Source of the DNA: Candidatus Omnitrophota bacterium
GTDB lineage: Bacteria; Omnitrophota; Gorgyraeia; Zapsychrales; Zapsychraceae
Direction of reading: 5' to 3'
Assembly: GCA_015233115.1 (NCBI GenBank)
Contig: JADFYJ010000015.1
Coordinates: 450 to 64,449 of the forward strand
Length of the DNA: 64,000 bases
The translations under genes and the position numbers were made by a program. The notes below the pieces were generated by a model. That model ran no database searches. It was not told where the DNA came from and saw nothing but the letters and a program-made list of their open reading frames with translations. This document shows, in pieces, positions 137 to 63,348 of this stretch (positions are counted from its first letter, which is position 1; every line of letters starts with the position of its first letter).

Positions 137-1743
<1,607 letters not shown>

Positions 1744-3258: not shown

Positions 3259-3290
3259 TTCTACTTTGTACTCTGTACTTTTTCTTACTC
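3259..3290. repeat. Oligo-repeat arm, family D (GTACTNTG octamer), at the lpxA 3' flank
   Basis: ctactttgtactctgtactttttcttactc. Same motif as the arm at 62456-62490. Overlaps the lpxA C-terminal codons. Confidence 0.5.
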
Positions 3291-5460: not shown

Positions 5461-5712
5461 TAACGTATATAGTATGTGGTATGTCGTATATGGTGAAAAA
5501 TTTTAAAAAACTAAAATAGATAAAAATATATATACTTTAGTCGGGAAAGTCAATAACCACGTCAAAAAATCACGCTAGTTTATCTTAAAATAATTTAGCT
5601 TATATTTATTGTTTACGAATTATTCCCACTAATCGCTTTTGCCCTGAATATTTCTTAAATCGTTTTTCACTACATACCACATACCACATACCACATACGA
5701 CATACTATTTTT
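5461..5712. repeat. Inverted-repeat-flanked intergenic element, family C (GTATGTG/ACATACC heptamer arms), copy 1
   Basis: Left arm tatagtatgtggtatgtcgtatatggtg. Right arm aatcgtttttcactacataccacataccacataccacatacgacatac, which contains the lpxD stop codon. It splits lpxD from lpxC-fabZ. Confidence 0.7.
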
Positions 5713-7269: not shown

Positions 7270-7385
7270 TTAATTTTGTTGGTTGTTGGTTGTTGGTTGT
7301 TGGTTATTGGTTGTTGGTTGTTGACATCAAAACTTTCGTTTTTTCCAAAAACCAAAAACTATAAACCATCAACCATAAATTACCT
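7270..7385. repeat. Family A heptad-repeat tract (GGTTGTT/CCAACAA) in the skp 5' leader and bamA 3' flank
   Basis: (ttggttg)n x ~9, then ctttcgttttttccaaaaaccaaaaactataaaccatcaacc. Confidence 0.75.
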
Positions 7386-7390
7386 CTCTT

Positions 7391-9778
7391 CTAGAACCCT
7401 CTACTTACACTAAAATAAAATTTCCCACTCTTGGATTTGCTTTCATCACCTGGTTGAGCGCTAAGCGGAAACCCATAGTCCAAATTAATCGGCCCAATGG
7501 GAGTTTTAACTCTCGCGCCAAACCCAAAGCCCGACTTAAGACCACCTTTACCAATATCGCCTGGGCTAGCCCAAACATTACCCGTATCAAAAAATCCTGC
7601 TAATTTAAAGAAATCAACAATCGGAACTGTCAATTCTATGTTTCCAATCAGCATGCTGTCCCCGCCGATAGGATCTTTTGTGACAGAATCAATCGGCCCA
7701 ATACTGCGTTCGTCATACCCACGAATGGTCCTAGCACCGCCGGCAAAAAACCGTTCAAAAATCGGAACTTTATCTGAATTACCATACGCGTCCATATATC
7801 CGCCACGGCCGCGCAGTTCAACTACCAAACCATATTTTAACGGCACATAATAACTGTTATCTGTTTTTAAACGATAAAAATTCTTATCGCCGGAAAACGG
7901 CCCGCCAGCCAAATCCGTTCCATTGTCTGTAACCCAGCCTTTAGTCGGACTAAACACATTATCACGGGAATCACGTTTGATCGAAGCCCCCATCATACTG
8001 ATCTGGCTGTGTCCCTCTTCAGCTCTTAAATCTGCCGACACATTATCTTCCAAGTTACCAATTTTGACCCATTCATGTTTATACGACAAACCGCCCGACC
8101 AATATTCTGAAAATTGTTTCCCCAAGCGCAAAACTTGTCCTACGCGTTCTTCATCGTATATATAACCTGAGCTATTATCCCGGGAATGAACAGTCCGGTA
8201 TAAATCAAACCCGGCGGAAACAGGATGATCAAATAGCCACGGTTCTGTGAAACTTAACAATAAATTATTTTTCGTTGACCCTGCTTCAGCACGTAACGTC
8301 AATTGCTGGCCAGCTCCGGTAAAAGTCGGCCATTTTGCAAAATCGAAATTGCGTTGTTCAATTTCCACAAAACCAACCACTTTATCTACCGTACTGTACC
8401 CGCCGCCAAAACTGAATGACCCGGTTTTGGCTTCCTTCACATCAACCAGCAAATTTTTTCGGTCCGGCGCAGACGTGTCTTCCATATCAAAATTCACTTC
8501 ATCAAAATAACCCAGATTGGTCAACCGTTCTTTACTGCGCCGAAGTTTACCACCGTCAAACCGGTCGCCAGGGTATAACTTTAATTCCCGGCGGATAACA
8601 ATATCCCGGGTGCGGGAATTCCCTTGAATCTTAACTTTTTCAATATAAGCCAAACGCCCTTCATCAATATTTAACGTCACATCCACTTTAGCGAGTTTTG
8701 AATCAATCCCGGCTTCATCTTTGATATTAGCAAAAATGTAACCTTGATCAAAATATAAATTACGGACATCCGCGATATCCAAAGATAATTTTTGCCGGCT
8801 GAAATATCCGCCTTCATAAGTGTTTTTTAACGCGGTGTGAATCTGTTTTCCAGAAATTATTTTATTTCCAGCAATTTTCAGACTGCTGACCACATAACGC
8901 TTTCCTTCATCAATTTTAACATCAATTTGAATCCAGCCTTTTTGCATCTTATCGACGGAATACACAGCTGTCGCGTCGATAAAACCTTTTTGTTCATAGA
9001 AGGAGGCAATACGTTCCATATCCTCATCCAAAGTCTCTTGCTTTAAAATACCAGAACGGAACCAATTTTTCGTCCGAGTCTTAACCTGTTTCATGACAAC
9101 GCCGTCGCTAAATGTATTATTACCCAAAATATTAATTTTCTTAATCCTGATTTTCTGCCCTTCTTCAATAATAAAATGAAGACTAACTTTATTCGTTACC
9201 TCATCCACCGACTGCTCAACATCCACCTGAGCATTCGTCAAACCCTTCTTCACATACATATCCTTAATCTTTTCCACATCTTCTTTAAGAACTTTCGTGT
9301 CTAAAAACCGGCCCAATTTCGTTTGAATTTTTGTTTTTAATACTTTACTGCTGATATATCTGGTTTTAGAAAAAGACACATCCTCAATCAATTTTTTCTC
9401 GTCCAATAAAAAAATAACCTTAAAACCGCTTTCAAAATCTTGACGGTCAACCCGGACATCGGAAAAATAGCCAGTGTTATACAAACGCTTAAGATCATCG
9501 CTCACAATATTTTGCACATATTCTTGACTCACGCGGGTCTTGATCTTGGATAATATCGTAGCCAAGCTGATGGTTTTATTGCCTTTAACTTCAATCGCTG
9601 TCACCATTTTCTTGACTTCAGGGGATTCCGCAGCAGGCACCGTTGCCTCAGCAGGCGCGGGAACAGACGCGGCTTGAGGAATAGTCCCGGATGGTTCCGG
9701 CTGATTCTGTTGAGCCGCCGCGATACTGGCGAAAATGATTAAATTAACAAGCAGAAGGAAAGATAGTATTTTTTTCAT
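7391..9778 (-). CDS. bamA: Outer membrane protein assembly factor BamA (Omp85)
   Basis: Start moved to MKKILSFLLLVNLIIFASIAAA (signal peptide). The upstream 35 codons are repeat-derived. POTRA repeats and a C-terminal beta-barrel. Followed by skp and lpxD. Confidence 0.9.
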   Translation of the reverse strand: MKKILSFLLLVNLIIFASIAAAQQNQPEPSGTIPQAASVPAPAEATVPAAESPEVKKMVTAIEVKGNKTISLATILSKIKTRVSQEYVQNIVSDDLKRLYNTGYFSDVRVDRQDFESGFKVIFLLDEKKLIEDVSFSKTRYISSKVLKTKIQTKLGRFLDTKVLKEDVEKIKDMYVKKGLTNAQVDVEQSVDEVTNKVSLHFIIEEGQKIRIKKINILGNNTFSDGVVMKQVKTRTKNWFRSGILKQETLDEDMERIASFYEQKGFIDATAVYSVDKMQKGWIQIDVKIDEGKRYVVSSLKIAGNKIISGKQIHTALKNTYEGGYFSRQKLSLDIADVRNLYFDQGYIFANIKDEAGIDSKLAKVDVTLNIDEGRLAYIEKVKIQGNSRTRDIVIRRELKLYPGDRFDGGKLRRSKERLTNLGYFDEVNFDMEDTSAPDRKNLLVDVKEAKTGSFSFGGGYSTVDKVVGFVEIEQRNFDFAKWPTFTGAGQQLTLRAEAGSTKNNLLLSFTEPWLFDHPVSAGFDLYRTVHSRDNSSGYIYDEERVGQVLRLGKQFSEYWSGGLSYKHEWVKIGNLEDNVSADLRAEEGHSQISMMGASIKRDSRDNVFSPTKGWVTDNGTDLAGGPFSGDKNFYRLKTDNSYYVPLKYGLVVELRGRGGYMDAYGNSDKVPIFERFFAGGARTIRGYDERSIGPIDSVTKDPIGGDSMLIGNIELTVPIVDFFKLAGFFDTGNVWASPGDIGKGGLKSGFGFGARVKTPIGPINLDYGFPLSAQPGDESKSKSGKFYFSVSRGF

Positions 9779-9799: not shown

Positions 9800-10143
9800 A
9801 TATTGGTTTATGGTTAAAAAAATGGTTAATGGTTTTTGGTTGTTGGTTTTTGGTTGTTGAATTTTTTTGTAATTATTAACCAAAAGCTAAAAACCAATAA
9901 CTCTTTCACCGTTTTATTAATGATCTTTTTTAATTGGTCTGATTATAAAGTCATAGGCATATGATGTCAACATTTGACTGGAATTTTTACTACGATTTTT
10001 AAAGCATGAGACGATAGATTATAGTCGACGGGTAATATAATTTGAATTTCAAATTTTTATTGTTAATTTTGGGCTCTTATTTTTAAAAAAGAGCTTCTCC
10101 CCATTCGCTTTTTCCAAAAACCAACAACCATCAACCAAAAACC
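9800..10143. repeat. Family A inverted-repeat-flanked intergenic element between dnaB and bamA
   Basis: G/T-rich arm at 9800-9900 (tggtttatggttaaaaaaatggttaatggtttttggttgttggtttttggttgttg). Complementary arm at 10104-10143 (attcgctttttccaaaaaccaacaaccatcaaccaaaaacc). Confidence 0.7.
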
Positions 10144-10149
10144 TTCAAG

Positions 10150-11923: not shown

Positions 11924-12226
11924 AGTATGTGGTTCGTAGTATGTCGTATGTAGTAAAAACGAATGATTAAAAAAAATTTAAAACCATATTTATGCTTTAG
12001 AACTTAATTGATAAGTAAGCACATAGAAACAAAATTTATTTATTGTGACTCTATCAAATTTTATTTACTTTATAATTTTATGACCACTGTTATTTTGCAC
12101 GATACCTCTAGCAAAACAACTACTCCTGATTAATGTTTTTTAGCATTAATATATGTTTTTGCAATATATTCTACGCTTTTTGATCAATCGTTTTTCACTA
12201 CATACTACATGCCACATACTACATCC
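11924..12226. repeat. Family C inverted-repeat-flanked element inserted between rpsR and rplI
   Basis: Arm gtatgtggttcgtagtatgtcgtatgtagt. Arm aatcgtttttcactacatactacatgccacatactacatcc. ~250 bp AT-rich core. Confidence 0.7.
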
Positions 12227-14627: not shown

Positions 14628-14650
14628 GTGACTTAACCACTTTCTTTATG

Positions 14651-14812
14651 GGTTTTTGGTTTTTGGTTTGTGGTTTTTGGAAAAAACGAATATTTTCGAT
14701 GACCAACAACCAACTGCCATTAACCGTATTTTTTATTTTTTATTGGTTTTACAGTTTTTGGAAAAAACGAATATTTCCGATAACCAATAACCATCAACCA
14801 ACAACCATCAAC
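14651..14812. repeat. Family A element (two tandem sub-copies) between prs and rplY
   Basis: gggtttttggtttttggtttgtggtttttggaaaaaacgaatattttcgatgaccaacaaccaac, then a second ttttggaaaaaacgaatatttccgataaccaataaccatcaaccaacaaccatcaacc. Confidence 0.75.
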
Positions 14813-14816
14813 CGTA

Positions 14817-15755
14817 CTATTTATTTTCAAAAAATAAACAACTTATTGACTGTTCTTCCTTAATCCGTTTGATCGCTTCCGCTAAAAGAGGAGCGACGGA
14901 TACCTGCGATATTTTTTTAATTTTCTTCGACTCATCCAACGGAATGCTATTGGTCACCACCAACTCTTTCAGCGCCGCGCAATTCTCCAGCCGTTGAATC
15001 GCGTTACCCGACAATACCCCGTGAGTGACTGCCGCGTAAACATCTCTAACCCCATGTTTCTCGAGGGCATTGACAGCTTCAACCATAGAACCTGCCGTCG
15101 CGATGATATCATCCACTAACACTACATTCTTGCCCGTTACATTACCCAAAATATGCATAACTTCCGTTTTTTCCGGACTATCGCGCCTTTTATCAACAAT
15201 AGCTAACCCCGCGCCCAAACGTTTCGCGTAAGCCCGCGCCATTTTAATCCCGCCCACATCCGGAGAAACCACAACAAGATCTTCTAAATTTTTGCGTGAA
15301 AAATATTCACAAATCGTGTTAATACCATACAAATGATCAACAGGAATATCAAAAAATCCCTGGATCTGCGCCGCATGAAGGTCCATGGTTAGAACACGAT
15401 GCGCCCCGGCGGCCACAATCAAATTAGCAATCAATTTTGCCGTGATAGGAACCCTCGGCTGATCTTTACGATCTTGACGCGCGTAACCATAATATGGGAT
15501 AACCGCGGTGATCCGTTTTGCCGAAGCTCTACGGACAGCGTCGATCATTATCAACAATTCCATCAAATTATCATTCGCCGGCGAACACGTAGGCTGAACA
15601 ATAAATACATCCCGGCCGCGCACATTATCTTTGATTTCAACCCGGATTTCCCCTTCGGAAAAACGGGATACTAAAGCCTTAGCCAAAGGAATACCTAAAC
15701 AATCCGCCATGCCTTGCGCTAATGCCGGATTTGCGTTGCCAGTCAAAATTTTCAT
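14817..15755 (-). CDS. prs: Ribose-phosphate pyrophosphokinase
   Basis: 312 aa. Typical Prs N-terminus. PRPP-binding loop DDIIATAGS. Confidence 0.95.
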   Translation of the reverse strand: MKILTGNANPALAQGMADCLGIPLAKALVSRFSEGEIRVEIKDNVRGRDVFIVQPTCSPANDNLMELLIMIDAVRRASAKRITAVIPYYGYARQDRKDQPRVPITAKLIANLIVAAGAHRVLTMDLHAAQIQGFFDIPVDHLYGINTICEYFSRKNLEDLVVVSPDVGGIKMARAYAKRLGAGLAIVDKRRDSPEKTEVMHILGNVTGKNVVLVDDIIATAGSMVEAVNALEKHGVRDVYAAVTHGVLSGNAIQRLENCAALKELVVTNSIPLDESKKIKKISQVSVAPLLAEAIKRIKEEQSISCLFFENK

Positions 15756-17027: not shown

Positions 17028-17282
17028 TTAAAGTTGCAATGTTGCTCGCAACATCAACTTTAATGTTGACTTGCCCTTTGTAGTCTTAAAATATTTTTCT
17101 CTCCTAAGTGCGTCTTCTTTGCTTTGATAAGCTTCATAAAAAATAAGCTTTAAAGGTCTTCGTGCTTTCGTGCTCGTATTACGACCCTCATAATGGTCTT
17201 TTAATCGAGTTTCGAGGTTTTCACTGAAACCAATATAAAAATTATTGTCTTTTAAACTTAGCAAAACATATACAAAAAACAT
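17028..17282 (-). CDS. GIY-YIG nuclease-domain protein (UPF0213-like)
   Basis: 84 aa. FFVYVLLSLKDNNFYIGFSENLETRLKDH carries the GIY...YIG motifs. Confidence 0.75.
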   Translation of the reverse strand: MFFVYVLLSLKDNNFYIGFSENLETRLKDHYEGRNTSTKARRPLKLIFYEAYQSKEDALRREKYFKTTKGKSTLKLMLRATLQL

Positions 17283-17286
17283 ATTT

Positions 17287-17421
17287 AAAAGAATTCACGA
17301 CCCTGAACTACAAGAGTTCAGGCACTCATTTATTTTAAAGTAGGATTCGGCTGTGCACCCAACTTGGCACACAGCTTATCATATTAAAAGAATTCACGAC
17401 CCTGAACTACAAGAGTTCAGG
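17287..17421. repeat. Duplicated 36-bp hairpin element with an intervening palindrome
   Basis: aaaagaattcacgaccctgaactacaagagttcagg at 17287-17322 and again at 17386-17421; it contains the hairpin cctgaact/agttcagg. Palindrome gctgtgcaccc...ggcacacagc between the copies. Confidence 0.8.
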
Positions 17422-17443
17422 GCCATGAACCCTACGTGGTTCA

Positions 17444-17517
17444 TGGCTGCCCGGCATGGATTCGAACCATGAAAACAAGATCCAAATTCTTGTGTGTTAC
17501 CATTACACCACCAGGCA
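17444..17517 (-). tRNA. tRNA-Gln (anticodon UUG), 74 nt with encoded CCA
   Basis: Hand-folded cloverleaf. 7-bp acceptor stem (one G-U). D-stem GUGU/ACAC with a GG loop. Anticodon stem CAAGA/UCUUG with loop AUUUGGA. T-arm CAUGG-UUCGAAU-CCAUG. Discriminator G then CCA. Confidence 0.8.
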
Positions 17518-17559: not shown

Positions 17560-17634
17560 GGTTAATTGTTATTGGTTTTTTAAGTTTTTCGTTTTGTTGT
17601 TAACCAAAAACTAAAACCAAGAACAATTAACCAA
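17560..17634. repeat. Family A repeat tract upstream of the tRNA-Gln
   Basis: ggttaattgttattggttttttaagtttttcgttttgttgttaaccaaaaactaaaaccaagaacaattaaccaaaa. Confidence 0.6.
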
Positions 17635-17644
17635 AATTTCCAAT

Positions 17645-18071: not shown

Positions 18072-18929
18072 TCAAAGCGTATGCGCAACAAACACCTGTT
18101 TGAATCGCTTTGAAAAACGTTGAGCGATCTCTCTGGCCTTGGCTTGGTCTTCCACAACAGCATAAACCGAGGGACCGCTGCCTGAGATCAAAACCCCTTT
18201 AATATCAAACAATCCTAGGTTTTCCTTGATGGCTTGAAGTCTCGGAGAAACCTTTAGGATCACAGTTTCTAAATCATTTACTAATAATGACTTTAATGTC
18301 TCTAATCTATTATACTTCAAATTTTGGATAAGAATACTAACATCTACATTTTTGTTTGTCAATGGTAAATTGAGTCCCTGGTAAATCTCTGGAGTATATA
18401 ACTTAATGCACGGTGTTATAATCACATACCAAAGTTTATTTTTAATATTCAGCTTGCGAATAATATCCCCGCGCCCGGTCCCCAAAGCCCACGGAGTATC
18501 ATATAAAAAAAAGGCCACGTCACTTCCAATTTGCCGGCCATATTCAATTTGCTGTTTTTGCTCTAACTTAAGATCCCACAATTGGTTTAATCCCTTAATC
18601 ACAGTAGCCGCGTTGCCTGAACCTCCCGCTAATCCAGCAGCTACGGGAATACGTTTTTTAATATCTATCTTCACTCCCCATTTCACGTTTAAGTCGCGTT
18701 TTAACAAATCTGCCACCTTATAAACTAAATTCCTCATATCCAGAGGGACATCCGGATGGTCGCAGGTGACACTAATCCGGCCTTGGGCATTTTTCGTTAA
18801 TACAATCTCATCCCCCAAGCTGATCCGCTGAAATAGAGTCTCGATATTATGATATCCATCCGGCCGTTTGTTGACGACTTTCAAAAAAAGGTTTAATTTA
18901 GCTGGAGAAAAAAGTTTGAGTTTATTCAT
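18072..18929 (-). CDS. ispE: 4-diphosphocytidyl-2-C-methyl-D-erythritol kinase
   Basis: 285 aa. PAKLNLFLKVVNKRPDGYHNIETLF GHMP kinase. Bacillus-like position upstream of spoVG. Confidence 0.9.
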   Translation of the reverse strand: MNKLKLFSPAKLNLFLKVVNKRPDGYHNIETLFQRISLGDEIVLTKNAQGRISVTCDHPDVPLDMRNLVYKVADLLKRDLNVKWGVKIDIKKRIPVAAGLAGGSGNAATVIKGLNQLWDLKLEQKQQIEYGRQIGSDVAFFLYDTPWALGTGRGDIIRKLNIKNKLWYVIITPCIKLYTPEIYQGLNLPLTNKNVDVSILIQNLKYNRLETLKSLLVNDLETVILKVSPRLQAIKENLGLFDIKGVLISGSGPSVYAVVEDQAKAREIAQRFSKRFKQVFVAHTL

Positions 18930-19938: not shown

Positions 19939-20040
19939 TTACTTAGTATCGCGTTTTTTCAAGTGACGCAAAGATTTTCTCAACTTCTTTCTCTTATGCG
20001 TTCTAATCTTACACTTTTTTCTTTTTTTTCCGCACGGCAT
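19939..20040 (-). CDS. Candidate small, highly basic protein (33 aa)
   Basis: Minus-strand MPCGKKRKKCKIRTHKRKKLRKSLRHLKKRDTK with a GAGGTGG RBS. Lies between the TPR gene and hisG. Below the ORF-track size cutoff. Confidence 0.3.
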   Translation of the reverse strand: MPCGKKRKKCKIRTHKRKKLRKSLRHLKKRDTK

Positions 20041-20957: not shown

Positions 20958-21040
20958 ATGGTTGATAGTTGATGGTTTTTGGAAAAAACGAAAAACTTAT
21001 ATAACCGACAACCAATAACCAACAACCATAAACCAACAAC
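20958..21040. repeat. Family A element in the hisG leader
   Basis: atggttgatagttgatggtttttggaaaaaacgaaaaacttatataaccgacaaccaataaccaacaaccataaaccaacaac. Confidence 0.75.
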
Positions 21041-21185: not shown

Positions 21186-21227
21186 AATCGCTTTTTCCAA
21201 AAACCAAAAACCATCAACCAAAAACCT
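21186..21227. repeat. Family A arm in the leader of the ppiD-like gene
   Basis: aatcgctttttccaaaaaccaaaaaccatcaaccaaaaacc, 17 nt upstream of the ATG. Confidence 0.75.
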
Positions 21228-21244
21228 AAATACACGGAGTTGCC

Positions 21245-22767: not shown

Positions 22768-22968
22768 ATGTCGAGAACTAATGTGGATTTAGATGACGGC
22801 CTTTTACATCATGCTTTAACGCTGACCCATTTACCCACCAAAAAAGCCGTGGTAAATTTAGCTTTGACCGAATTGGTCAAACGCCTCAAACGCCGCGATA
22901 TTATAAAGTTTATGGGTTCAGGCGCTTGGGAAGGAGATTTGCATCATTTAAGAGGAGCCAGAGTTTGA
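22768..22968 (+). CDS. vapB: Type II antitoxin, VapB family
   Basis: 66 aa. MSRTNVDLDDGLLHHALTLTHLPTKKAVVNLALTELVKRLKRR matches the VapB/DUF2191-type antitoxin pattern. Confidence 0.75.
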   Translation: MSRTNVDLDDGLLHHALTLTHLPTKKAVVNLALTELVKRLKRRDIIKFMGSGAWEGDLHHLRGARV

Positions 22969-23384
22969 TCTTAGTTGATACCTCTGTTTGGATTGATTTT
23001 ATTAATCATACTACTTCCGAATCTGCCCATATTTTACGTCGGCTGATTGAATCCGACGCAGAAATATGCCTGGCAGATATCCATTTAACCGAAATTTTGC
23101 AAGGTATCAAGCCAGAAAAAACTTTCATTGAACTAAAAAAATATCTATTGATGTTCCCGGTCTTGAGACCGCAAGGGATTGAGACCTATGTTTTTGCCGC
23201 CCAAATTTCTCGCCTATGCAGCCAAAAAGGAAACCCCATGGTTAAAACTGTTGATACGCTTATCGCGACTATTGCTATTGAAACAGGGGCAGAATTACTG
23301 CACAAGGATAAAGATTTTGATGTAATCGCGAAGCACTTGCCGCTGAAGATTTTTAAAGTCCCAACAACATCCGCAAATTCGTAA
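22965..23384 (+). CDS. vapC: Type II toxin, PIN-domain VapC
   Basis: TTG start, overlapping the vapB stop as TTGA. LILVDTSVWIDF with a conserved Asp. 139 aa. Its 3' end overlaps the 3' end of the convergent giant ORF by 32 nt. Confidence 0.75.
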   Translation: MILVDTSVWIDFINHTTSESAHILRRLIESDAEICLADIHLTEILQGIKPEKTFIELKKYLLMFPVLRPQGIETYVFAAQISRLCSQKGNPMVKTVDTLIATIAIETGAELLHKDKDFDVIAKHLPLKIFKVPTTSANS

Positions 23385-26300
23385 CCGGAACTACGTCGAT
23401 AATGACCGGCACAAAGCCGTTAATATTTTTCAATTGTTCGATCATAGCAGGATCTGTCTTAATCTCAAATCCCCGACCTTCCTGATCAACGTCCACCTTT
23501 AAATGAGCGGCATTTAAATCGATACCGCCGTCTTTGGGAGCAGGATTCGTTATTTGCGCTTGATCGCCTTTCGCCTTTTCAGAATGAGCAAAGTCTGACA
23601 TACGGAACTTTTCCGCCAGCCCATTTCGGTAGACCTGTAAAAGCTCTTCTATATTTTTTTTCAATTCTCTTTCCAACCGCAAAATTTCTTCCTCATAACT
23701 GAACTGTAATTCCCTAATCATTTCGGTTGCATAGAAAAACTCGTCAACCCATTTGTATATAATGTCTCTTTCCTTTTTTAAATCACCGATTTTTTGTTTA
23801 ATTTTTTTTTCCTTACTTTTAAATTTAGCAATTACAAAATCGTCAGCGAATAAATTTCTATTAGTAAGAACCTCCGCTTTTTCTAAATCAGAAAAGGGCG
23901 AATTTAGAATAGCTTCCACCATTTCCGGATTATTTAATATCAGATCACGGATATTCCCCACACTTGAATGGACAAACCCAATGGCTTGCCTCAATTTATT
24001 TAACGATTCCATGTTTTTACTCGTCCTCGTGAAATGAACAAATTTCTCAAGAAACCTTCTTCCGCCGGGGTCTTCTTTTAAAATTGATATCACATTTTGA
24101 AACACCACCCTATAAACTCCAGTATATTGTGATGGTTCTTCCGTTAATAAATCATCGTACCCCGCGATCAACCATACTCCTTCCCCAACAATTTTATCCT
24201 GCAATTCTTTTGTCACTATTTCTTGGGACACTCCCCTGGTAATAATGGTTTTACGATTTTCCACTAAGGATATAACCTGGCCCAGTTTTCCAAATGGCGA
24301 TAATCCTACGGCGCCTGCAGCGCCTCCTATTAATTTCAAAAATCCCCGGCGGGATTCGGAGTAAGCCTCTGGAATTTCGTTCTCTGTATCTTTTGCCTGA
24401 GACGTCATTTCCTGAATCATTAGAGCGATCAGCCCTTCGCGGCTATTCACTATATTGTTATTGTTCGCCAAGATTTTTCCATCTTGAATCATATGGATGA
24501 TTTCTTCCATGATTTGATCCCGCTGGGAATGCTGCAGGACGGAAGACTTTAAACTGTCAACAGCGACGGCGGTTAAAGAAAACGGCTCTTCAATGCCGCC
24601 AAATATTTTCATTTGAACGGCGTTCCATTTCATTCGCATACGGGTAACCAGATCCGGATTCAATATTTTCTCCCACGCCTGATCAGCTAGTTGCATTAAT
24701 AGCTGATGGGCGGGATTGTCCAGCATGGCCGCATCGTTTCGTCTGTGTGAGAGAGCTTGATCCTTTTGCTCCTTCCCCAAACGTAATATTTCCTTTTCAA
24801 TATCTCTAATTATATCTTCCGCTTGCACTATAAAACTCTCATCCCGCACGCGATCGTTTCCTATATTATGGGTTAATTTTTCATGGAAATCCATCATTTC
24901 ACTTAACCCAACTTCCAATTTTACCTGAATGAGAAACTCGAAAGCAGATCTTAAATGATGAAATACAATACGGCGGTCATGAAAAGACTGGAGTGTCAAA
25001 AAGCTAATTTTATTACAAATTGCATCTAGTGAATCGCGATCAACATGAATTATGTGCTTCATGGTGTGTGCGATATCATCGCGCTGTAACAAATTTGCTT
25101 TCTTAAATTTCTTAGTTATTTCCAGGACTGATTGCATTTGCTTTAAATCATTTTCCAACTGCAAAATTTCCCCACTATAAGCGTTAAGAACATCCTCAGT
25201 AGTTTTTGTTCTATAAAAAAATCTCTCGATCCATTTATAAAAAATTTCTCTTTCCGCATTTAATCCAACGATTTTTTGTTGTATTTTCACAATATTTTTT
25301 TCTAATTCCGGAATAGAATCTTCATTTTCCGGAGACTCAGTTTTAACATCAAACAAATCCAGCAATGTTTGTCTTTTTCCATCATTAGATATCGGCAAAT
25401 TCATGACAGAAGACAAAACCTCAGGCGGCGTATTTTCCATTTCTATGATAAATTGAAGAAGGATATTCCTTATGGGTTCCAATTTACCCAGTAAACCTTC
25501 TAAATATTCTATGGAATAATTTCCCAAAAAACTATTCAGATCATTTGTGGATAAAACGTCTGATATTTCTTCTGTATCCAGAGGTTGATTTGTTAATACC
25601 CTATATACAGCTGTTGGAATCCTCAATCTTACCTCGCCAACTAAAACAGGTTGCATTCCAGGCAGATTGTTCTTCCATAAAAAACTGCTATAACGTTGTT
25701 CCACTTGGGTGACCAGACTGTAAATTTTAAAATATAAATCTTGCTTTTTTTCTTGAGCTTGAAATAGCCCATCTACGACAACAGAAGACGGACCCCCAGC
25801 CATTTTCATAATACCAGTTAATTCTTTAGGCATCATCCGTGTACCAGCCGCTGCCACAGCGACAGTTTTCATAAATTCCCGGCGGGACATTCCCGCTTTT
25901 CCGTCCCGTTGATCTTTCCTGTCTTCTGTAACCATTAAATCAAGTAGACCGATTCCTCCATTCATAAACCCATTTTTCCCTGCCCCAATCTCTCCAGATA
26001 ATTTCATGCACTCGATTTCACGCCTCAATACATCTTTCAGTGGATGATTTTCAACGGCTTGGCGCATCTTTTCAGCGGCCATAGCTTTCATCGGTAAAGG
26101 CTGTTTCATATGATCAAACAACATCTTCAATCTTTTTAACCAGGAAGGATTCAATATTTCAGAAGAAATCTTCTCCGCCAGTTGCATTAATATTTGACGA
26201 TTCAGACTATTTTGTTCCAAAGCATACAATTGAGGATGTTCGGGATTATTCAACATTGCCGCGTCGTGATTTTTTCCGCTAACATTATGTGGCCATTTGT

Positions 26301-29300
26301 CAACGCGCGCCTTATTGAATAATCCTAAAATAAATTCAAGATTTTTAAGTTCTTTTTCCAACTGAAAAATCTTTTCATCGTAATTTAATACCCATTTAGT
26401 ATTAATTTCTGTTACGTAAAAAAATTCGTCTAACCATTTAAATATAATGTCTCTCTCTTTGTTTAACTTTGCAATGTTTTCTCGGGTTTCGCTGATCTTA
26501 CTTTTCAAATCTGTCATTGTTTTGGGCTCTAAAAATCCATTAGCATGACCATAATCTAAAAGGATTTTTTGTTTTTGATCTAGAGTAAAATCCGATAAAT
26601 CACGAAGAGTTGAGAACATAGAAGGGTTATTTTCGAGGACACGAAAAAAATTAGCCAAGATGTGATTGGCGGGTTCCAAATCCCCAACTGCTTTTTTTAA
26701 AAATATTGTTGATATTTCATCAGCATGCGGCCGACGGATAAACATTTCAATCACTTCTTTTGGTGTTAGATCTTTTACTGGACCAGCTAACATTTCCAAT
26801 ACAAGATCGTTCCTTTCAGTAGCACCGTAGATAACATTATACGTTTTGGTTATACCCTCCTGAACCAAGTCCACATGCTCTGTGATTTTGGTAAACAATC
26901 GCAAACGTAACAATTCTTGATCCGGCATGGCTACAGTAACCGGGCGCTCTGCCAACTTCATGGCATCTTTCAAACCCTCAGGCAAAAATCCCACCGACAT
27001 GGCGGCAGCAACGGATATTTTAAAAAATTCCCGCCGCTCTATACCCGACTCCAAATCTTCTTTGATCATAGAATCTATTAACCCGCTTCCACCGGTCAAA
27101 AGCGTTTCATTACCAGTTCCATTCTTTCTCATTTGCTTCATCCGCTCGATTTCCTGAATTAACACGTCTCTTTGAGGATGAATGTGAATTGTCTTGCGCA
27201 GATTAGCTGCCGCAAAAGATTCTATGCTAATGGGTTCTTTCAGATATGCAATCGCCCTGCGCAACCTGCCCATCCACCCAGGATTCAAGATTTGTTTCCA
27301 TTCCTGATCTGCCAGTTGCATTAATATTTCACGGGTGGAATTGTTTTGATCGCCTATGCTCAATTGAGAATTTTCCAGCATCGCCGCGTCTGACTTTTCA
27401 CCGCTTAGTTTCAATAGCCAATTCTCTGCGCGCGATTTGTTGAATGCGCCTAAAACAAATTTGAGTTGTTGTAAATTAAATTCTAATTGCAAGATTTCAT
27501 TGTCATAGCTCAGATACGCTTCCTCCGTCAAATTTAAGTAGAAAAATCCGTCCACCCATTTGTGTACAATCTCTCTTTCCTTCTTTAGCTCAATGATCTT
27601 TTGTTTGGTCTCAGTGATCATTGCTTCTATTTTAGGTATTGTTTTCGGTTGAAAATATTTGGTTTTTGCTGCATGCAAATCCATAAGCATTTGTTTTTTG
27701 TCTGTTTCTGAAAAGCTAGGAAGCTCCAATATGTCCCAAGCTGCCTCAAGGTTTTCGGCCATCGTAGAAATATAATCAGCAACAAGTTGAATTTTAAGAT
27801 TTCCTTCAGAAAGTAAGTGTTTATAGTAAGACAAATCACGCGGAAAATTTACGCGTTCATAATTGTTTGGCAATGTTATACTATCCATTTGCAGATGGGC
27901 AAACTGAGGAATAATGATCCCATCTGGATGAAAAGACGGATTAATATGAAAAACATGAAGTCTCAGCGCATTCATCCTTTCATCCAGCTGATGAACTAAT
28001 TGCCATTTTTTCCACCAAGTACTTGACGGGTATTGTGTATCGCCTTTATCCCCTACAGGAATAGAAATTGTTGCGTTCTCAACCATACTCATGACACTTT
28101 TAATGCCGATTGGCATAATACCCATAGCACTGGCCGTACCGCCGGCTAATTTTAAAAATCCACGACGAGACAATTCTATTAAATCCTGCTTTTTAAAGTC
28201 TTCCTGAACCATAAAATCCAACAAGCCTTTTCCGCCAGTTAATAGACGATTATTTCCTGTACCAATATCACCCATATGAATCATCAGCGCAATTTCCTGA
28301 ATTATCTCATCTTTTTGCGGATGTTCATTTATCGCCTGACGCAGTTGAGCAGCCGCAAAAGACTCCATGGTAATTGGTTCTTTTAAAAAAGCAATCGCCC
28401 TGCGCAGTTTGCCCATCCACCCCGGGTTCAATATTTGTTTCCATTCCTGATCCGCCAGCTGTATTAATATTTGACGGGCAGGATTATTTTGATCTACGGA
28501 AGTCAACTGAGAATTTTGCATCATGGCTAAATCAGGTTGTGAATCGCCGTTGTCAGCCGTCATATCTTTCCCGAATTTAAATTTTAAACTCTCCCAAAAA
28601 CTAATAAAATAAAAGACTTCAGGATCATATAATGACTTCTTAGTGATCATACTTGAAGCGCCGGCTTCAATACCACTTATTATAAACCGTAGATCATTGC
28701 CCCGAAGATCATCGCTGTTTTCCCAAATTTGCACCAAAAATCTTTGTTCGGGAGCTGATAATTGTTCTATTTTTTCCAATAAAGCTGTGGCTTGATATGA
28801 TATTTTGTTATTGAATCCCGAATGTGGATATAACGGAAGCTTCATTGGGGTTCCATCTTTGATTTTTTTTAAAAATTTCAGTATTTCCAGATTTTTCTCC
28901 GGAACCCGCAGGTCTGCAACAATCGTATTGACAAGCATCACGAGTTTCTGATCATTAAGCTCCTGGCCAGACAAAGATTCAATCCGTGACGAAACAGCAT
29001 TCATGACCCAAAACACCGGACCCTTTACATCACCCGGAATTCCCAGCATAAACCGATGTTTGCCTTTAAGATCATAAAATAGTACATAATATTTATAATT
29101 GGCCTCTTCCCGGCTGTTAAGAATTTTTCGTTGAAGGTCTTTATCGTCTTTTATATTTTGAAAAAGCGTCACAACTTCGGGGTCCATGCGGTCCAAGTTG
29201 TTTCTGATCTGGCGATTTCGCATCACATCGTCGATAATCTGGCGGGACTCATCAGAACAACGGAAATACATAAAAGCGGTTTTATTACGGACACCTTCCT

Positions 29301-32300
29301 GAGCATCAACTTTCCTTTGTCCTGAAAGAGTTTGCTGTAAAACAAGCTCAAAGCCCTCATCTTCAAAATAACTGATTGCATCCGCGTCACGAACCATGTC
29401 AATATCTTCTTGTCCCCCCGCTTCATGATTCACAATAACCCGGTAAACCCGGCTGATAAGATTATCAGAGGCTCCGGCTTTTTTTAACAGTCCGACCGCT
29501 ATTTTTGCAGACACCATACTATGTGCTTTTTTATACTGATCGTAATAATGCTCTCCCAATGCTTTTTCATAATCTTTTTTGTTCACTTCAAAATGAGGAA
29601 ACGCGCGGTCTATGTCATGAAGCATTCCGGCTATACGCAAATACGCCGGTGCTTGTCTACCATAACGAAGTTGATAAATCTGCGCTGCGTAGTTGCCAGT
29701 GTTCAACAAATGCGGATCCAAACCTGGCAGGGGTTTGTCTCGATATTCGTTTTGGCGCAAATTTCTGATAATTTTTTGTAAAATTCCCGTTACTTTCTGA
29801 ACATAAATTTCTTCTTTGGAATCATATTCACCAAAAATATTTTCATTAGGTTTAACCCAAAATACAGGATTCAATCCGACTTCTACCAATAAACCAATGT
29901 TAGGGAATTTCTTCTGAACCATAGCGCTGTCCGTTGGTGTATTATTCATTAAATCATCAGAACCTCTATCATTCAAATCCGTTTTCATAGCCGCGTCGGC
30001 TAGAGAAGGCTGATATTTATCCAACGATGCTCCAAACGTAGCTTCACCAGCTTTAGGCGCATGATAAACTCGACCGGAAGGGCCTTGCCAAACAAAATAA
30101 TTTCCATTACTAAGTATTTGACTGGCTTGACGGCCAATTTTAAAAAACACCATTTTATATTTTGAATCTTCCTGTGAATTTGCTAAAAGCGCCGCGTCAT
30201 CATACTTAGCTCTGAGGTTGTTAATTGTTTCCCCGTTTTCACCGATGTGACTTTGCAACGCATGGGTTTCATCTTTTTGATGCAATAGATACAATGTTCT
30301 TAAAAAGAAGGATAAAAACAAATGTTCAGCATAATTTCTGTCATTTTTTTTAAACTTGCCATCGTTGTGAAAAAATACCGGATTTAAATATTTATCCAAA
30401 CTCGCTTCATACAAATCATGCACGTAAGGAGTCAGACTGCGAATATCTACTACGGCAGTTGAAACAGGAAGATCGCTGTGAATCTCAGGTGAAAAACGTT
30501 TGAAGGCTTCCGCAATAATGGAACCCGATTGATGCTCTTTTTGCTGATTCAAAAAATCCGCATACATTTGAAATATCACGTTTCCTTGCATTGCTTCATA
30601 AAAGTATGGATCAAGGCTTTTCAGTATTTCAAAGACGTCGTCCGCAGTCATGCGAGCATAAAATTTATTTTGGTTCACGGCCATGTCATAAAAAGGTTTC
30701 AACAAAACCACAGCAGGCAGAAAATCTTCATAAGTCTCAAGCCTGGGTTCAGGTTCACCCTGCCATTTTCCTGCATTAAATCCTTGATAATAAGTCAGCT
30801 TATTAAACCTCTCACCCTGAAGGCCCATGTCGCGTTCAAGAAGTTTGTATAACTTGATGCGGATTCGGTCATGCATCTTTAAAATTTCATTATCTTCTTC
30901 TTTTCCAAAGGTTAAAGCTGGCGTTTTCATCAAAACATTCATATACCAGCGGACAAAATAATTACGAATTCTTTGTGGCGCATCTACATACACATCGCTA
31001 TAGCGAACACCCCAATGATGGCCTAAATCAACATCCGATAAATCATAATTATCGTAAACTCCCGTATCAAGCAAATCCGCGGCGCCATTCGGGTCACCGT
31101 CGATAAAACCAGTTAAAATCCAGTCTAATAATTGAGAGTCATTTGTAGATATAGCCGTATTCAACAATAAGCGACAAAGTGCTCTTCTCTGTTGCATGTT
31201 CGATTGACGCGCCGGAGATTTGATGAATCCGTAAACTTTACGTTTTTCTTCAATATCACTCTTCGCCCAAATACTCATGACGTATATTTTTAAAAATTCT
31301 TGGGCTTCTTTCTCCGACAGTAAGCTTAAAGATTCCATGATCGTGCGTTCACAGTCCTTATTGCCTGCTTTCCGAGACAAAGCCCTCAACTCTTCCAGTT
31401 TATCTTCTCGATGCAATTCACCCACGAAAGAAATCCATAATTTTAAAATTTTTCCGTTTTTTTCGTTTTGATTAAATATATATTTTTCAACAAAAGAGTT
31501 AATTTTTACTCTTTGTTCTGATGTCAACGCGAACTCTCCTTCTAGTTTAAGCACGCTTAATAAATAATTGCCAATAGTATTGAGTTTTACTTCATTTAAT
31601 CCTGATGATTCCATAATGGTAATTTGTTTCCACACTTCCTCAAAAAATCGCGGATCCCCGACTTCTATAAAATATTTAAACGCCTCAACAAAATGAGGAG
31701 ATTTTTTGTCTAAAAATTTTAAAGCTGAAGGCTGGCCAACCGGACTCTGATAAGCAATCAGAATTGAAAAGATATTCTGTAGCGTTTGCGATTTAGAATC
31801 GTCCTGAAAGTCAATATTAATTAAATGTTTAACCAGCAAGTCAATGAGTTCATCTCTTCGATATTCTCGGCGCAAATCGTATTTATCTGAACCTTCTCTA
31901 TCCTGATGCGTCATAAATTCGTTAAAAAAATATGCCACATCCAAAGGCGTTGTTTTAAATAACTGGATAGCGGTATCAATATAATCGACGGTTAAGCGAG
32001 GATCTGTAGAATATTCTATGTAGATACCTTGGACACCAAACTGAAATAAATTCTGGGCTACACGAAAATTCTTTTCCTCTCTTATCATTTTCAAAAGTCT
32101 CTTCGCTATTTTATCGTTTTTGCAAAGTTCGCTAAAAATACCTGAAATTCTTAAAAGCAGCCTTTCATTATGAAATATCAAATTATCATCCGTATCTGCT
32201 AGACCGCAAATGTATCGAAGATTTTCAAAAAAGAATTCTATCGTTGGCTCATCATCTATTTTCCATAAAGAGTTTCTTTCAACTCCGAGATACTCCATGA

Positions 32301-34968: not shown

Positions 34969-35064
34969 GGCCTTCTCTAAAATTAATAAAGGATTGTGAA
35001 AACTAGCGAAAGTGTGCCATATATATTTATATTTGGCAAGGCAGATTGAGTTCTTGATTTCTCA

Positions 35065-35352
35065 TTATTTGTGAAGGTAAGAGCGCGGATGTCGATGCTG
35101 GTGGGCTACGGCAGAAATAATTACAGAGTTGTCAATAATCCCATAAAGTATTAAATATGGGAATTTACGTAAAGGACATTTACGGGTATGTCTGGTTAAA
35201 AATTGGTGCCCCTCAGGATAAAGGCGTATGAAATCAATGGCTTCCAAAATTTCATTGCGAAAAAGAACACCCAAGCCGGTCAGTTGTTGTTCATAAAATT
35301 CAATGGTTTGATTCAATTCTTGTTGAGCGATAGGCAAGAAAATGACGTTCAT
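35065..35352 (-). CDS. Type II toxin, ParE/RelE family
   Basis: 95 aa. MNVIFLPIAQQELNQTIEFYE...ILEAIDFIRLYPEGHQ. 4-nt overlap with the upstream antitoxin gene. Confidence 0.7.
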   Translation of the reverse strand: MNVIFLPIAQQELNQTIEFYEQQLTGLGVLFRNEILEAIDFIRLYPEGHQFLTRHTRKCPLRKFPYLILYGIIDNSVIISAVAHQHRHPRSYLHK

Positions 35353-35561
35353 TTGGCTAGTTGTTTTTTAATGGTTTCAAAATTTATGCCTTTTAGTTTG
35401 CCATTTTTATACGCGGCAAGACGTTTATCTGACTCAACGCCCCACTCCCGTTCGATTTCCGGATCAGGTTTATCCAGACTTGCGAGGATATTGTCAACCA
35501 TACGCAGACGCTGAATAGGTGAAAGCTGCAGAATATTTTTTTCAATATTTTTTACTGTCAT
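35349..35561 (-). CDS. Putative addiction-module antitoxin (TIGR02574-like)
   Basis: 70 aa. LSPIQRLRMVDNILASLDKPDPEIEREW...LAAYKNGKLKGINFETIKKQL matches the addiction-module-component pattern. Confidence 0.65.
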   Translation of the reverse strand: MTVKNIEKNILQLSPIQRLRMVDNILASLDKPDPEIEREWGVESDKRLAAYKNGKLKGINFETIKKQLAK

Positions 35562-35850
35562 AAAAAAACTCCTTTTTCGTTAAACAAATTATAACATTAG
35601 AAGGTGGAATGTTCAAGGGAGCGTAAAAATGGTGTCTGATCTCGACTAAAAAATAAGTTGAGGGGAATGCTTTTATATAAAAAGCATAAATCAAAAAAAC
35701 CATTCTTAAAGTAAGATAATTCCAAGTTGCCGTCAAAGTTGATAGACCAAAGTTGCTTTAAAATAAGATAATACCAGGTTGTGATAATGATTTTTTGATT
35801 TTTCCCCTCAACCAGACTTCAAAATCTTTTTTTGAATTCAAACCATCTGC

Positions 35851-43471: not shown

Positions 43472-43607
43472 GAGCTCCTGGTACTACGCGGACATTACGT
43501 CCTTGGTCGCACCACTCGCGGAGCTCCTGGTACTACGCGGACATTACGTCCTTGGTCGCACCACTCGCGGAGCTCCTGGTACTACGCGGACATTACGTCC
43601 TTGGTCG
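43472..43607. repeat. 49-bp tandem direct repeat x2.8 (not CRISPR)
   Basis: Unit gagctcctggtactacgcggacattacgtccttggtcgcaccactcgcg at 43472, 43521 and 43570. No spacers. Intergenic. Confidence 0.9.
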
Positions 43608-43757
43608 TAGGGGCGATCACCCGATCGCCCGCTTACAAAATATTCGCTTTTATATTTTATGTCAGTCAAATAAATAAAGCTGGGTCAAAAAACGCCCTGG
43701 AATGTTAAATTTATAAATCTTTTATAGTCCGGGCGATCAGGAGATCGCCCCTACAAC
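43607..43757. repeat. Pair of mutually inverted 25-bp palindromic elements flanking a ~100-bp AT-rich segment
   Basis: gtaggggcgatcacccgatcgcccgc (43607-43631) versus ccgggcgatcaggagatcgcccctaca (43731-43757), the reverse complement of the same motif. Confidence 0.7.
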
Positions 43758-43787: not shown

Positions 43788-44189
43788 TTACCTCTTCCCA
43801 CTTTTCTCATTCGCTTCCGCCAATTCAAACTTCACAAAATTTTCCTGCTCGTCAAAAAAAACATATACTTTAGGAGAATCAAAATATTTTGTGCTATAGC
43901 GATAGAGCCAACGATCCAATTTGCCGCCTTTGTCGTCGATAAATTTATTTAATATCGGCGCGCCAAAATCCCGCTGAAAATCTTTTTCCGTTCGATATTT
44001 ATCCAAATTCCCTTTGCGCGCCAACGCTAACAAATTTTCAAACAAATGATCCTGCTTATCAATCCCCACCTGATTTTGTTTCTGCACATCAGACAAATTC
44101 TTTAAAGTCAAAATCTCCCGGCCGGTTGAACATCCGCACAAAATCATCCCAACCAGCAACATTAAAATCAAACTTTGGGATTTTTTCAT
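43788..44189 (-). CDS. Lipoprotein, unknown function
   Basis: 133 aa. Signal peptide plus lipobox LILMLLVGMILCGCS. Confidence 0.6.
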   Translation of the reverse strand: MKKSQSLILMLLVGMILCGCSTGREILTLKNLSDVQKQNQVGIDKQDHLFENLLALARKGNLDKYRTEKDFQRDFGAPILNKFIDDKGGKLDRWLYRYSTKYFDSPKVYVFFDEQENFVKFELAEANEKSGKR

Positions 44190-44228
44190 AATAATCCTTT
44201 TGAAATTTTTAATTTTTTCGGTTGATGG

Positions 44229-44268
44229 TTTTTGGTTGTTGGTTTTTAGTTTTTAACCCATCATCCAT
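44229..44268. repeat. Family A arm in the lipoprotein gene leader
   Basis: cggttgatggtttttggttgttggtttttagtttttaacc. Confidence 0.7.
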
Positions 44269-63296: not shown

Positions 63297-63348
63297 ACTG
63301 ATCTATCACCTATCTCTTCTCACATATCACATTACAAAATTTTAAAAA

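Follow-up and report, generated by a model that had tools for sequence, protein, structure and literature searches.

We analysed a 64,000-nt stretch of the genome of a Candidatus Omnitrophota bacterium (assembly GCA_015233115.1, contig JADFYJ010000015.1, positions 450 to 64,449; hereafter the window) and conclude that the C/A-rich heptad tracts lying before a number of its genes are probably the gene-proximal arms of a non-coding foldback family which has recently expanded in the intergenic spacers of this genome. The window comes from a metagenome-assembled genome (MAG) and is gene dense, being 91% coding with a non-coding share of 8.8%, and nearly all of its genes are on the minus strand. 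Read on the gene strand, an element runs from the stop codon of one gene through three to seven G-rich, C-poor units of 7–9 nt, a short motif G-A5-(G)CGA(T/A) and an interior, which is either a loop of about 20 nt or an AT-rich segment of 150–250 nt, to a reverse-complement array that is C-rich, G-poor and without start codons and is followed by the Shine-Dalgarno (SD) sequence and ATG of the next gene. The best-supported reading of the C/A tracts is that they are the arms which selection tolerates, or favours, beside ribosome-binding sites (RBS). The mechanism of spread and any function of the elements we infer.

C/A tracts and their complementary arms

A preliminary description of this DNA had reported C/A heptad tracts in sense orientation before eight unrelated genes. 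All eight tracts were found, with 14–51 nt between tract and start codon (skp, 23 nt; bamA, 51 nt; rplY, 21 nt; hisG, 21 nt; the ppiD-like gene, 14 nt; the lipoprotein gene at 43788–44189, 25 nt; the pseudouridine synthase gene, 26 nt; the gene at 63349–63582, 27 nt), and the gene identities given there were borne out by NCBIfam and Pfam matches. The tracts are 27–48 nt long, G-poor and without start codons, and lie directly 5' of the SD sequence, ending 3–15 nt before it. The spurious N-terminal extensions of open reading frames (ORFs) that had been attributed to the tracts were exact ('...VNNQQPITNNQQPTTNK..' for skp, 'LVNNYKKIQQPKTNNQKPLT' for bamA and a 13-residue string for hisG), and the C-terminus of the SpoU methyltransferase ('..NHQPKTINQQ*') is indeed encoded by the repeat. 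The arrays are stop-free in some frames and therefore ORF callers extend N-termini (skp, bamA, hisG) and C-termini (SpoU, metC-like) through them. Two proteins, the Cys/Met pyridoxal phosphate (PLP) enzyme at 436–1731 (stop region 436–445) and the SpoU/RlmB methyltransferase at 47481–48320 (47481–47515), reach their stop codons only within an array, and since the stops lie there a changed number of units would alter both C-terminal tails.

The preliminary description had overlooked a complementary arm at 7345–7379, next to the skp tract, as well as the rule that arms come in pairs and the presence of unit classes which are not C/A-rich and have the same layout. On the gene strand the bamA–skp junction consists of the bamA stop codon, TTTATGG TTGATGG TTTATAG TTTTTGG TTTTTGG, AAAAAACGAAAGTTTTGATGT, (CAACAAC)~7, AAAATTAATTTT, AGGAGG and the skp ATG. 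Its two arms are:

7274–7323, minus strand: E3a gene-proximal arm, (CAACAAC)~7, the tract of the preliminary description; ends 23 nt before the skp ATG at 7250.
7335–7379, minus strand: E3a stop-proximal G/T-rich arm (TTTATGG TTGATGG .. TTTTTGG) with inner motif GAAAAAACGAA (7335–7345); predicted hairpin with 7274–7323 between bamA and skp; minimum free energy -28.9, z -3.0.

A foldback whose 5' arm is G/T and whose 3' arm is C/A shows C/A to the downstream gene on either strand, and for this reason the finding that eight of eight tracts are in sense is not independent evidence for a role in the leader.

Abundance, unit classes and shared motifs

Arrays were counted with Tandem Repeats Finder (period 7 or 8, at least 20 nt), using 20 dinucleotide-preserving shuffles as control. 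The window contained 29 arrays, a density of 4.5 per 10 kb, against 0–3 per shuffle; all except two (27/29) were in non-coding DNA, and arrays were present in 16 of the 23 spacers of at least 60 nt. This pattern is far beyond chance. Inverted arm pairs are 85–93% complementary, and in nearly every case the partner G/T-rich array lies upstream, usually 0–30 nt past the previous stop codon.

Several unit classes share this arrangement. Class a units are GGTTTTT, GGTTGTT and GGTTGAT, paired with AAAAACC and AACAACC. Class b pairs GTATGTG with CACATAC (5465–5705, 11924–12224, 62576–62766), class c pairs the octamer AGTAACCG with CGGTTACT (138–440, 50019–50255, 59822–60101) and class d consists of AGTACAG and CTGTACT (3262–3284, 62456–62489). 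Further arrays are a 9-mer (GGTAAAGGT-like) at 44746–44787 and a weak GTGATAG array at 63304–63332. The arms are tandem arrays without internal dyad, and in classes a to f they are closed, read from outside to inside, by the non-repeat inner motif given above. The window has 12 occurrences of this motif in the form GAAAAARCGAW where 0.86 would be expected, and eight of them adjoin arrays. A second sequence, CAAAATTA, immediately follows five gene-proximal arms, drawn from classes a, b and c; this 8-mer has no overall enrichment and its signal is its placement.

Two sizes of element are present, hairpins of 80–130 nt with a loop of about 20 nt and long forms in which the arms are 160–260 nt apart around an AT-rich interior. 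The short hairpins are at 7274–7379, 14649–14825 (two tandem 81-nt copies), 17562–17640, 20959–21040, 63610–63701 and 9820–9906. The hairpin loop is found in both orientations relative to the genes, and the single divergent spacer, between hisG and the ppiD-like gene, has a C/A arm for each of the outward-facing genes. Besides E3a, the features of the window are:

138–440, minus strand: E1c, class c, (AGTAACCG)n + AGAAAAAGCGAT ... (CGGTTACT)n; 93% over 41 nt, z -10.
3262–3284, minus strand: E10d, class d stop-proximal arm (AGTACAG AGTACAA AGTAG) + AAAAAAATGAT, after lpxA.
5465–5705, minus strand: E2b, class b, (GTATGTG)n + GTGAAAAACGAT ... (CACATAC)n, lpxD to lpxC/fabZ, genes which abut in the relative described below; 34 arm-arm pairs, z -8.4.
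9820–9906, minus strand: E4a right hairpin in the bamA leader, downstream of the conserved promoter, with C/A arm at 9826–9865; from inverted repeat, comparison with the relative and folding.
9942–9970, minus strand: TTGACA-17-TATAAT promoter-like site, conserved in the relative (L001), between two E4a insertions; from promoter scan and alignment.
10104–10148, minus strand: E4a stop-proximal arm (GGTTTTT GGTTGAT GGTTGTT GGTTTTT) + GAAAAAGCGAA, 8 nt past the dnaB stop.
11924–12224, minus strand: E5b, class b pair, rpsR–rplI; from inverted repeat and folding.
14649–14680, minus strand: E6a/E7a C/A arm, 21 nt before the rplY ATG.
14649–14825, minus strand: E6a and E7a, two tandem 81-nt hairpin units (period 81), prs–rplY; loop motif in the orientation opposite to E3a.
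17562–17640, minus strand: E8a, GGTTAAT.. / ..ATTAACC hairpin lying upstream of the tRNA and missing from L001; z -5.8.
20959–21040, minus strand: E9a hairpin before hisG; C/A arm 20959–20985, G/T partner 21001–21040, motif 20982–20992 (plus strand).
21187–21230, plus strand: C/A arm + ATCGCTTTTTC before the divergent ppiD-like gene; pairs with 20959–20991 across the divergent spacer.
44215–44255, minus strand: E11a, C/A arm before the lipoprotein gene 43788–44189, partner only rudimentary; z -1.85.
44733–44787, minus strand: E11e, 9-mer array (GGTAAAGGT-like) + GAAAAAGCGAT, after the ABC-F gene stop.
47484–47515, minus strand: E12a, solo C/A array overlapping the SpoU/RlmB C-terminus, then CAAAATTA and the pseudouridine synthase RBS.
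50019–50255, minus strand: E13c, class c pair before the dCMP-deaminase gene, then CAAAATTA.
59822–60101, minus strand: E14c, class c pair, GT2 gene to gene 59524–59796; junction 48 nt in the relative.
62456–62766, minus strand: E15, class b pair (62740–62766 / 62576–62605) + class d arm (CTGTACT)n at 62456–62489 before the GFO-family gene.
63268–63332, minus strand: E16f, weak heptamer array (GTGATAT..) then AAAAAGCGCGAA-ATTGC-TTCGCGCTTTTTT, an intrinsic-terminator-like hairpin before greA.
63610–63701, minus strand: E17a hairpin, ybaB to gene 63349–63582, junction 32 nt in the relative; z -4.7.

The preliminary description had also raised the possibility of a periodic protein-binding array, on DNA or RNA, which would suit the regular periodicity of 7–8 nt; (AACAACC)n moreover holds A-R-N triplets of the kind bound by the distal face of Hfq. 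However, at least five unrelated unit sequences occur in one architecture, the helical repeat of DNA is not in phase with a period of 7 nt, and unit order and number vary freely, and we consider sequence-specific binding to be a very improbable basis for the arrays.

Comparison with a relative and other Omnitrophota

A syntenic relative, JADFYE010000001.1, was compared over two regions (L001 and L222), greA giving the second anchor. Its proteins are 83% (BamA), 88% (L9) and 81% (GreA) identical to those of the window, and the genes have 72–80% nucleotide identity. No synteny anchor came from the TPR/GT39-like gene at 53569–55260, for which the protein search returned only paralogs of at most 39% identity. 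The junctions that hold elements in the window are far shorter in the relative (window and relative, respectively: prs–rplY, 189 and 12 nt; rpsR–rplI, 330 and ~0 nt; dnaB–bamA, 371 and 52 nt; bamA–skp, 140 and 34 nt; lpxD–lpxC, 257 and ~0 nt; ybaB–g77, 143 and 32 nt; GT2–g90, 294 and 48 nt; greA–GFO, 337 and 104 nt). They are also short in outgroup Omnitrophota with the same gene order (L125, L127, L128, L129, L131), the overall range in relative and outgroups being 0–108 nt. Since the relative and distant Omnitrophota both have short junctions, we conclude that compact junctions are ancestral and that the elements are lineage-specific gains, some of them inside core operons.

At dnaB–bamA a perfect TTGACA-17-TATAAT site (12/12 sigma-70-like) is present in both genomes, and in the window one insertion lies upstream of it and a complete hairpin downstream. 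Because this conserved promoter is upstream of the tract, the bamA tract is very probably in the leader. The bamA leader of the relative has a 2-unit proto-array, CCATAAACCAAAAT, at the same place.

Elsewhere in the phylum the phenomenon is sporadic. In L127 two inverted pairs of heptamer arrays are clear, (GAGTTAA)n...(TTAACTC)n, after which comes an RBS, and (GCTCATT)n...(ATGAGCC)n, after which comes an ATG; L001 has one inverted pair and five other loci have none. Heptamer hairpins extending from stop codon to RBS were seen in L127 at 1470–1570, 18090–18156, 1262–1360 and 9560–9620 (units GAGTTAA/TTAACTC, GCTCATT/ATGAGCC, GGTTAAC/GTAAACC and CGAGTTG), without the inner motif of the window, and heptamer hairpins of other units also occur in L001 and L222.

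Three junctions of the second region deserve separate mention. In the greA–GFO spacer a conserved TATAAT has (ACAGAGT)n on its greA side in the relative (L222 10478–10505), after the greA stop, and the complementary array (ACTCTGT/ACTTTGT)n on its GFO side in the window (62456–62489), before the RBS of that gene. This arrangement suggests an older class d pair of which each lineage may have kept one arm. At the junction of the HD gene with the next gene, 3 nt in the window, the relative carries a GC-rich palindrome of 30 bp, 97% complementary (L222 14477–14542), and since this is not an array we conclude that hairpin insertions of another type occur in the sister lineage. The window has a DUF4143/AAA_14 ATPase gene (51488–52693) flanked by the 232-aa gene and the gene for the aminotransferase; at this junction the relative (L222 19903–20130) has instead a foldback-like spacer of about 200 nt.

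Predicted pairing and polarity

In all eight long elements the minimum-energy fold pairs arm with arm over 26–38 bp (z -4 to -10), and the short elements fold as long imperfect hairpins with predicted z scores of -1.9 to -5.8. When spacers were folded from stop codon to AUG, the closing helix began -3 to 12 nt past the stop in 10 of 13 junctions and ended 16–45 nt before the AUG, the SD and AUG being mostly unpaired in these predicted folds. With such a fold the insert would be looped out of a read-through transcript, and stop and start codon would again be about as far apart as in the ancestral state.

The polarity of the elements is uniform, with the G-rich arm following the stop codon and the C-rich arm preceding the start codon. 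The stop-proximal arms (482 nt in total) contain 60 start codons, 153 G and 27 C. In the gene-proximal arms (516 nt) the counts are 32 G, 153 C and four start codons, and SD-like 4-mers are absent. These arms show no consistent excess of length over their partners. The balance of G·U and A·C mismatches is uninformative on selection at the RNA level, since G/T arms face C/A arms on both strands.

We propose that arm modules spread by copy-and-paste, in the manner of REPINs (hairpin-forming doublets of repetitive extragenic palindromes, REPs) or MITEs (transposable elements of the miniature inverted-repeat type), or by gene conversion, and that the arrays may then grow and homogenise locally through replication slippage. 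The arms would pair into a 26–38-bp stem in read-through (operon) RNA or in single-stranded DNA, looping out the insert so that the upstream stop comes within about 20–50 nt of the next AUG and the SD and AUG stay free, and on this proposal insertions would be tolerated inside core operons for that reason. The G/T-after-stop, C/A-before-start polarity would likewise be what selection allows near an RBS, since the C/A arm is without GTG, TTG or ATG and without SD-like runs of G. A C/A arm without its partner, either because the transcript starts inside the element or because the arm is solo, could provide an unstructured tract for ribosome standby or enhanced initiation; on this view the G/U arm upstream would be its mask, encoded in cis and comparable to GcvB, which pairs with C/A-rich enhancers. 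Carried furthest, this becomes a tentative and on balance unlikely picture of self-insulating intercistronic cassettes, in which pairing of the arrays would loop the element out and keep translational coupling, with the C/A tract masked in read-through transcripts and exposed in those that start internally or are cleaved by RNase III. If this is true, a mobile repeat would have scattered across the genome a cis-acting, built-in counterpart of the enhancer silencing known from GcvB.

The predicted imperfect stems, at 26–45 bp, are also of RNase III substrate length and are placed exactly between cistrons, as would be expected if the hairpins were selected for RNA processing, stability or insulation (as RNase III sites, 3'-end protectors or partial terminators) like REP/BIME (bacterial interspersed mosaic element) and Correia sequences. 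There is a resemblance between the inner motif AAAAAGCG...CGCTTTTT and the core of a bidirectional terminator, E16f has a terminator-like hairpin, and Correia elements bind RNase III and carry promoters (PMC2649163). The same operons of the relative are nevertheless without elements, which are therefore not required. There is no excess of terminator-like sites, internal sense promoters are not universal, and Rfam 15 at gathering threshold matched only the tRNA at 17447–17517 in the window. We consider selection of this kind rather unlikely as the explanation.

Sigma-70-like sites scoring at least 10/12 and pointing downstream were found inside E1c, E2b and E4a (twice). No promoter-like site in sense orientation lies inside E13c, E14c or E15b, and the idea that long elements always donate a promoter was dropped for this reason; promoter donation is occasional and not defining. 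Inverted repeats of 30–45 bp flanking segments of 150–250 bp, four of them holding these promoter-like sites, recall invertons; on that model an invertase acting in trans would recombine at the arms and flip the interior with its promoter. Against this, no recombinase is encoded in the 64 kb, half of the elements are short hairpins without an interior, E13c, E14c and E15b would have nothing of the kind to flip, the targets are housekeeping operons, and known invertons are far sparser than the elements here (about 17 per 64 kb). Inversion is in our estimation a highly improbable role for these arms.

C/A tracts as possible leader enhancers, and arrays in phage contigs

The preliminary description had suggested that the tracts are unstructured translational enhancers of the 5' leader that bind ribosomal protein S1. 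ACA and C/A-rich elements upstream of the SD are known to enhance initiation and are silenced when the G/U-rich region of GcvB pairs with them (PMC3879156); CA-repeat tails, if single-stranded and 16–18 nt long, make efficient standby sites (PMC5934652), and S1 is a candidate binder of such enhancers and standby sites (PMC3879156, PMC5934652). In the window a G-poor C/A tract of at least 16 nt just 5' of the SD was found in classes a and b only. The C/A arm is predicted to be paired when both arms are transcribed and to be free only in transcripts that start between the arms, and by analogy the enhancer idea is plausible for a free C/A arm.

Arrays of similar units were sought in unrelated IMG/VR viral contigs, scoring an ATG-initiated ORF of at least 60 aa that starts within 60 nt downstream, with four unit types pooled (66 distinct arrays). 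(GGTTGTT)3+ was present in 45 viral contigs, none of them with an inverted partner or inner motif, compared with 13 and 8 contigs for the permuted-unit controls and 14 for GGTTTTT, which makes (GGTTGTT)n 3–5 times commoner than permuted units. An ATG-ORF lay downstream of the array in the C/A sense in 30 cases and in the G/T sense in six. The class b array gave one viral match. Viral class c arrays were considered as kin of those in the window and proved unrelated; they come from a single phage family, have no inner motif and consist of GTAACC iterons inverted about an AT-rich segment. In this family (L132, L135–L140), which nonetheless shares a 22-mer with class c of the window, inverted GTAACC(G) arrays flank an AT-rich stretch of about 80 nt and have the look of an iteron-type replication origin.

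Selection of the C/A tracts as enhancers or standby sites, S1-bound and unstructured, with the remainder of the element incidental, is favoured by the position of the G-poor tracts just before the SD, by the bamA tract being downstream of a conserved promoter, by the published enhancer and standby elements, and by the phage arrays with their excess of (GGTTGTT)n and their bias towards the C/A sense. That part of the suggestion which concerns position and composition stands. It is the unstructured state that does not fit, as the partner arm is predicted to sequester the tract in operon transcripts, and the idea further leaves unexplained the partner arm itself, classes c and d, which have the same layout and are not C/A-rich, and the absence of tracts from the orthologous genes of the relative. 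Gene-proximal arms are not lengthened relative to their partners, and sense orientation follows automatically from foldback polarity. We regard enhancer selection as a possible but doubtful account of the tracts.

Probable spread of the elements

Similarity between elements is limited to the arms and 15–30 nt beside them, the interiors being unrelated. The arms at 10148 and 21230 are 97.5% identical over 40 nt, with the same order of variant heptads, and E1c and E13c are 92.6% identical over 68 nt. Because near-identical arm modules keep the order of variant units, copying between loci is favoured over independent growth. The skp tract, on the other hand, consists of seven near-identical units which do not match those of its partner, and local homogenisation of this kind is a signature of slippage.

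Slippage in each spacer, with inverted copies made by template switching and with neither dispersal nor function, would make the arrays pure in-situ microsatellites. Heptanucleotide repeats are described as the commonest long simple sequence repeat (SSR) class in prokaryotes (Mrazek 2007, as given in PMC4679880), arrays can be locally homogeneous (the E3a arm has 95% matches), and the proto-array CCATAAACCAAAAT of the relative has just two units. This account does not explain why loci share arm modules of 40–68 nt that include non-repeat flanks and the order of variant units, nor why the inner motif is common to all classes and CAAAATTA is shared on the outer side, and we think it quite unlikely.

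Several points weigh against the foldback reading. The homogeneous C/A arm of E3a pairs imperfectly with its partner and, because the units of the two arms mismatch, slippage alone explains part of the pattern. Some arms are solo (47484–47515, 44215–44255), and partnerless C/A arrays before phage ATGs indicate that the C/A tract may have a function of its own. At dnaB–bamA two insertions are needed and not one, since the arms flank the ancestral promoter. The timing rests on few genomes with only one close relative, and every step at the RNA level is a prediction. No transposase, recombinase, REP-associated tyrosine transposase (RAYT) or reverse transcriptase was found among the proteins of the 64-kb window, and no target-site duplication could be defined at seven pairs of empty and filled sites, where the flanks are AT-rich and about 25% diverged, so that we infer mobility solely from presence and absence and from the shared arm modules. 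A metagenome scan with GGTTTTTGGAAAAARCGA gave, among the matches listed, only chance or coding ones ('EWFLEKAT' in an RsmE-like gene), with no array context.

Other features of the window

A repeat of a different kind from the heptamer arrays lies at 43472–43757, where 340 nt separate the genes for the lipoprotein and RmuC. There a 49-nt unit recurs in 2.8 copies of 100% identity, and an inverted repeat (43604–43631 / 43730–43757) with GGGCGATC...GATCGCCC palindromes adjoins it. A stand-alone GIY-YIG nuclease gene of 84 aa (17028–17433) is inserted beside the tRNA at 17447–17517, where L001 has different genes, and this locus holds two copies of a 29–45-nt palindrome (17294–17322 and 17389–17433). 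Between hisG and the TPR gene is a very basic ORF of 33 aa (MPCGKKRKKCKIRTHKRKKLRKSLRHLKKRDTK; 19939–20040), kept in L125 (1054–1155) and L127 (~1360–1465), which had no Pfam match and which we take, as a guess, to be a candidate small ribosomal-type protein. The region 22768–35561 contains an ORF of 3871 aa (23353–34968), almost without Pfam domains, flanked by a VapB/VapC pair (22768–23384) and a ParE/antitoxin pair (35065–35561), with a repeat of 26-nt period at 35708–35781.

Significance and comparison with known systems

For annotation, MAG pipelines will mis-call start codons where such elements are common. In evolutionary terms, one lineage of a compact-genome phylum has inflated 16 of its 23 larger spacers, including rpsR–rplI, lpxD–lpxC and bamA–skp, and the filled and empty junctions of the window and its relative form a natural before-and-after comparison of how operons tolerate insertion. 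The case makes heptamer polarity experimentally approachable, and through the paired C/A and G/U arms the idea of an enhancer plus a mask is directly testable. A literature search found no paper linking Omnitrophota to such repeats.

The cyanobacterial short tandemly repeated repetitive (STRR) sequences are heptanucleotide repeats at gene boundaries. Others are the GGGNATC heptamers of Xanthomonas and Nostoc, which have the same strand polarity (Rehm et al., PMC4692102), and, in Beggiatoaceae, Cyanobacteria and Bacteroidetes, the TAACTGA repeats that lie shortly before start codons (MacGregor, PMC4679880). Like these, the arrays of the window are built of 7-nt units in tandem, strongly favour non-coding DNA and lie at most about 50 nt from a start or stop codon; the coding strand shows the G-rich unit past stops and the complementary unit ahead of starts, the neighbouring genes are unrelated housekeeping genes, and copy number varies between relatives. 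Every defining feature of heptanucleotide SSRs that was tested, namely tandem excess, non-coding bias near ORF ends and polarity, was found in them. They differ in forming inverted pairs with a conserved inner motif, in having several unit classes in one genome, in enclosing inserts of up to 250 nt inside core operons, in being without G-quadruplex potential and in belonging to a new phylum for such repeats. Polarity of the G-after-stop, C-before-start type, reported for Xanthomonas, Nostoc and Beggiatoaceae, is now seen in phage contigs and Omnitrophota as well, and this recurrence points to gene boundaries being under some general constraint or having a general function.

As in REPINs and REP-BIME (PMC3116915), an extragenic inverted-repeat doublet folds into a hairpin, occupies many spacers in both orientations and varies between close relatives. 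The arms, however, are heptamer or octamer arrays and not the imperfect palindromes of 20–40 nt that characterise REPs, there is no RAYT in the 64-kb window, and arm spacing ranges from 20 to 260 nt around unrelated interiors. With MITEs and the Correia elements of Neisseria (PMC2649163, PMC3184786) the elements share terminal inverted repeats and an intergenic position beside genes, and, with Correia elements, the potential to form hairpin RNA when co-transcribed (an RNase III substrate in Correia) and to supply promoters. Unlike MITEs, they have no target-site duplication or parent insertion sequence identified in the window, interiors are not conserved within a class, and the conserved part is subterminal (inner), the termini being variable arrays. 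The resemblance to C/A enhancers and their masking by GcvB (PMC3879156, PMC5934652) consists of a G-poor C/A tract of at least 16 nt upstream of the SD and a complementary G/U-rich partner able to pair with it; here the partner is in cis, upstream in the same spacer, and the classes that are not C/A-rich do not fit.

The eukaryotic Foldback (FB) transposons have long inverted termini made of short tandem repeats around a variable middle and are kilobase-scale and transposase-associated; the likeness to them is architectural only. We conclude that the foldback arrays of this genome are a variant of known heptamer-repeat and foldback (REPIN/MITE-like) elements, and that what is new is the inverted arrays on a shared chassis.

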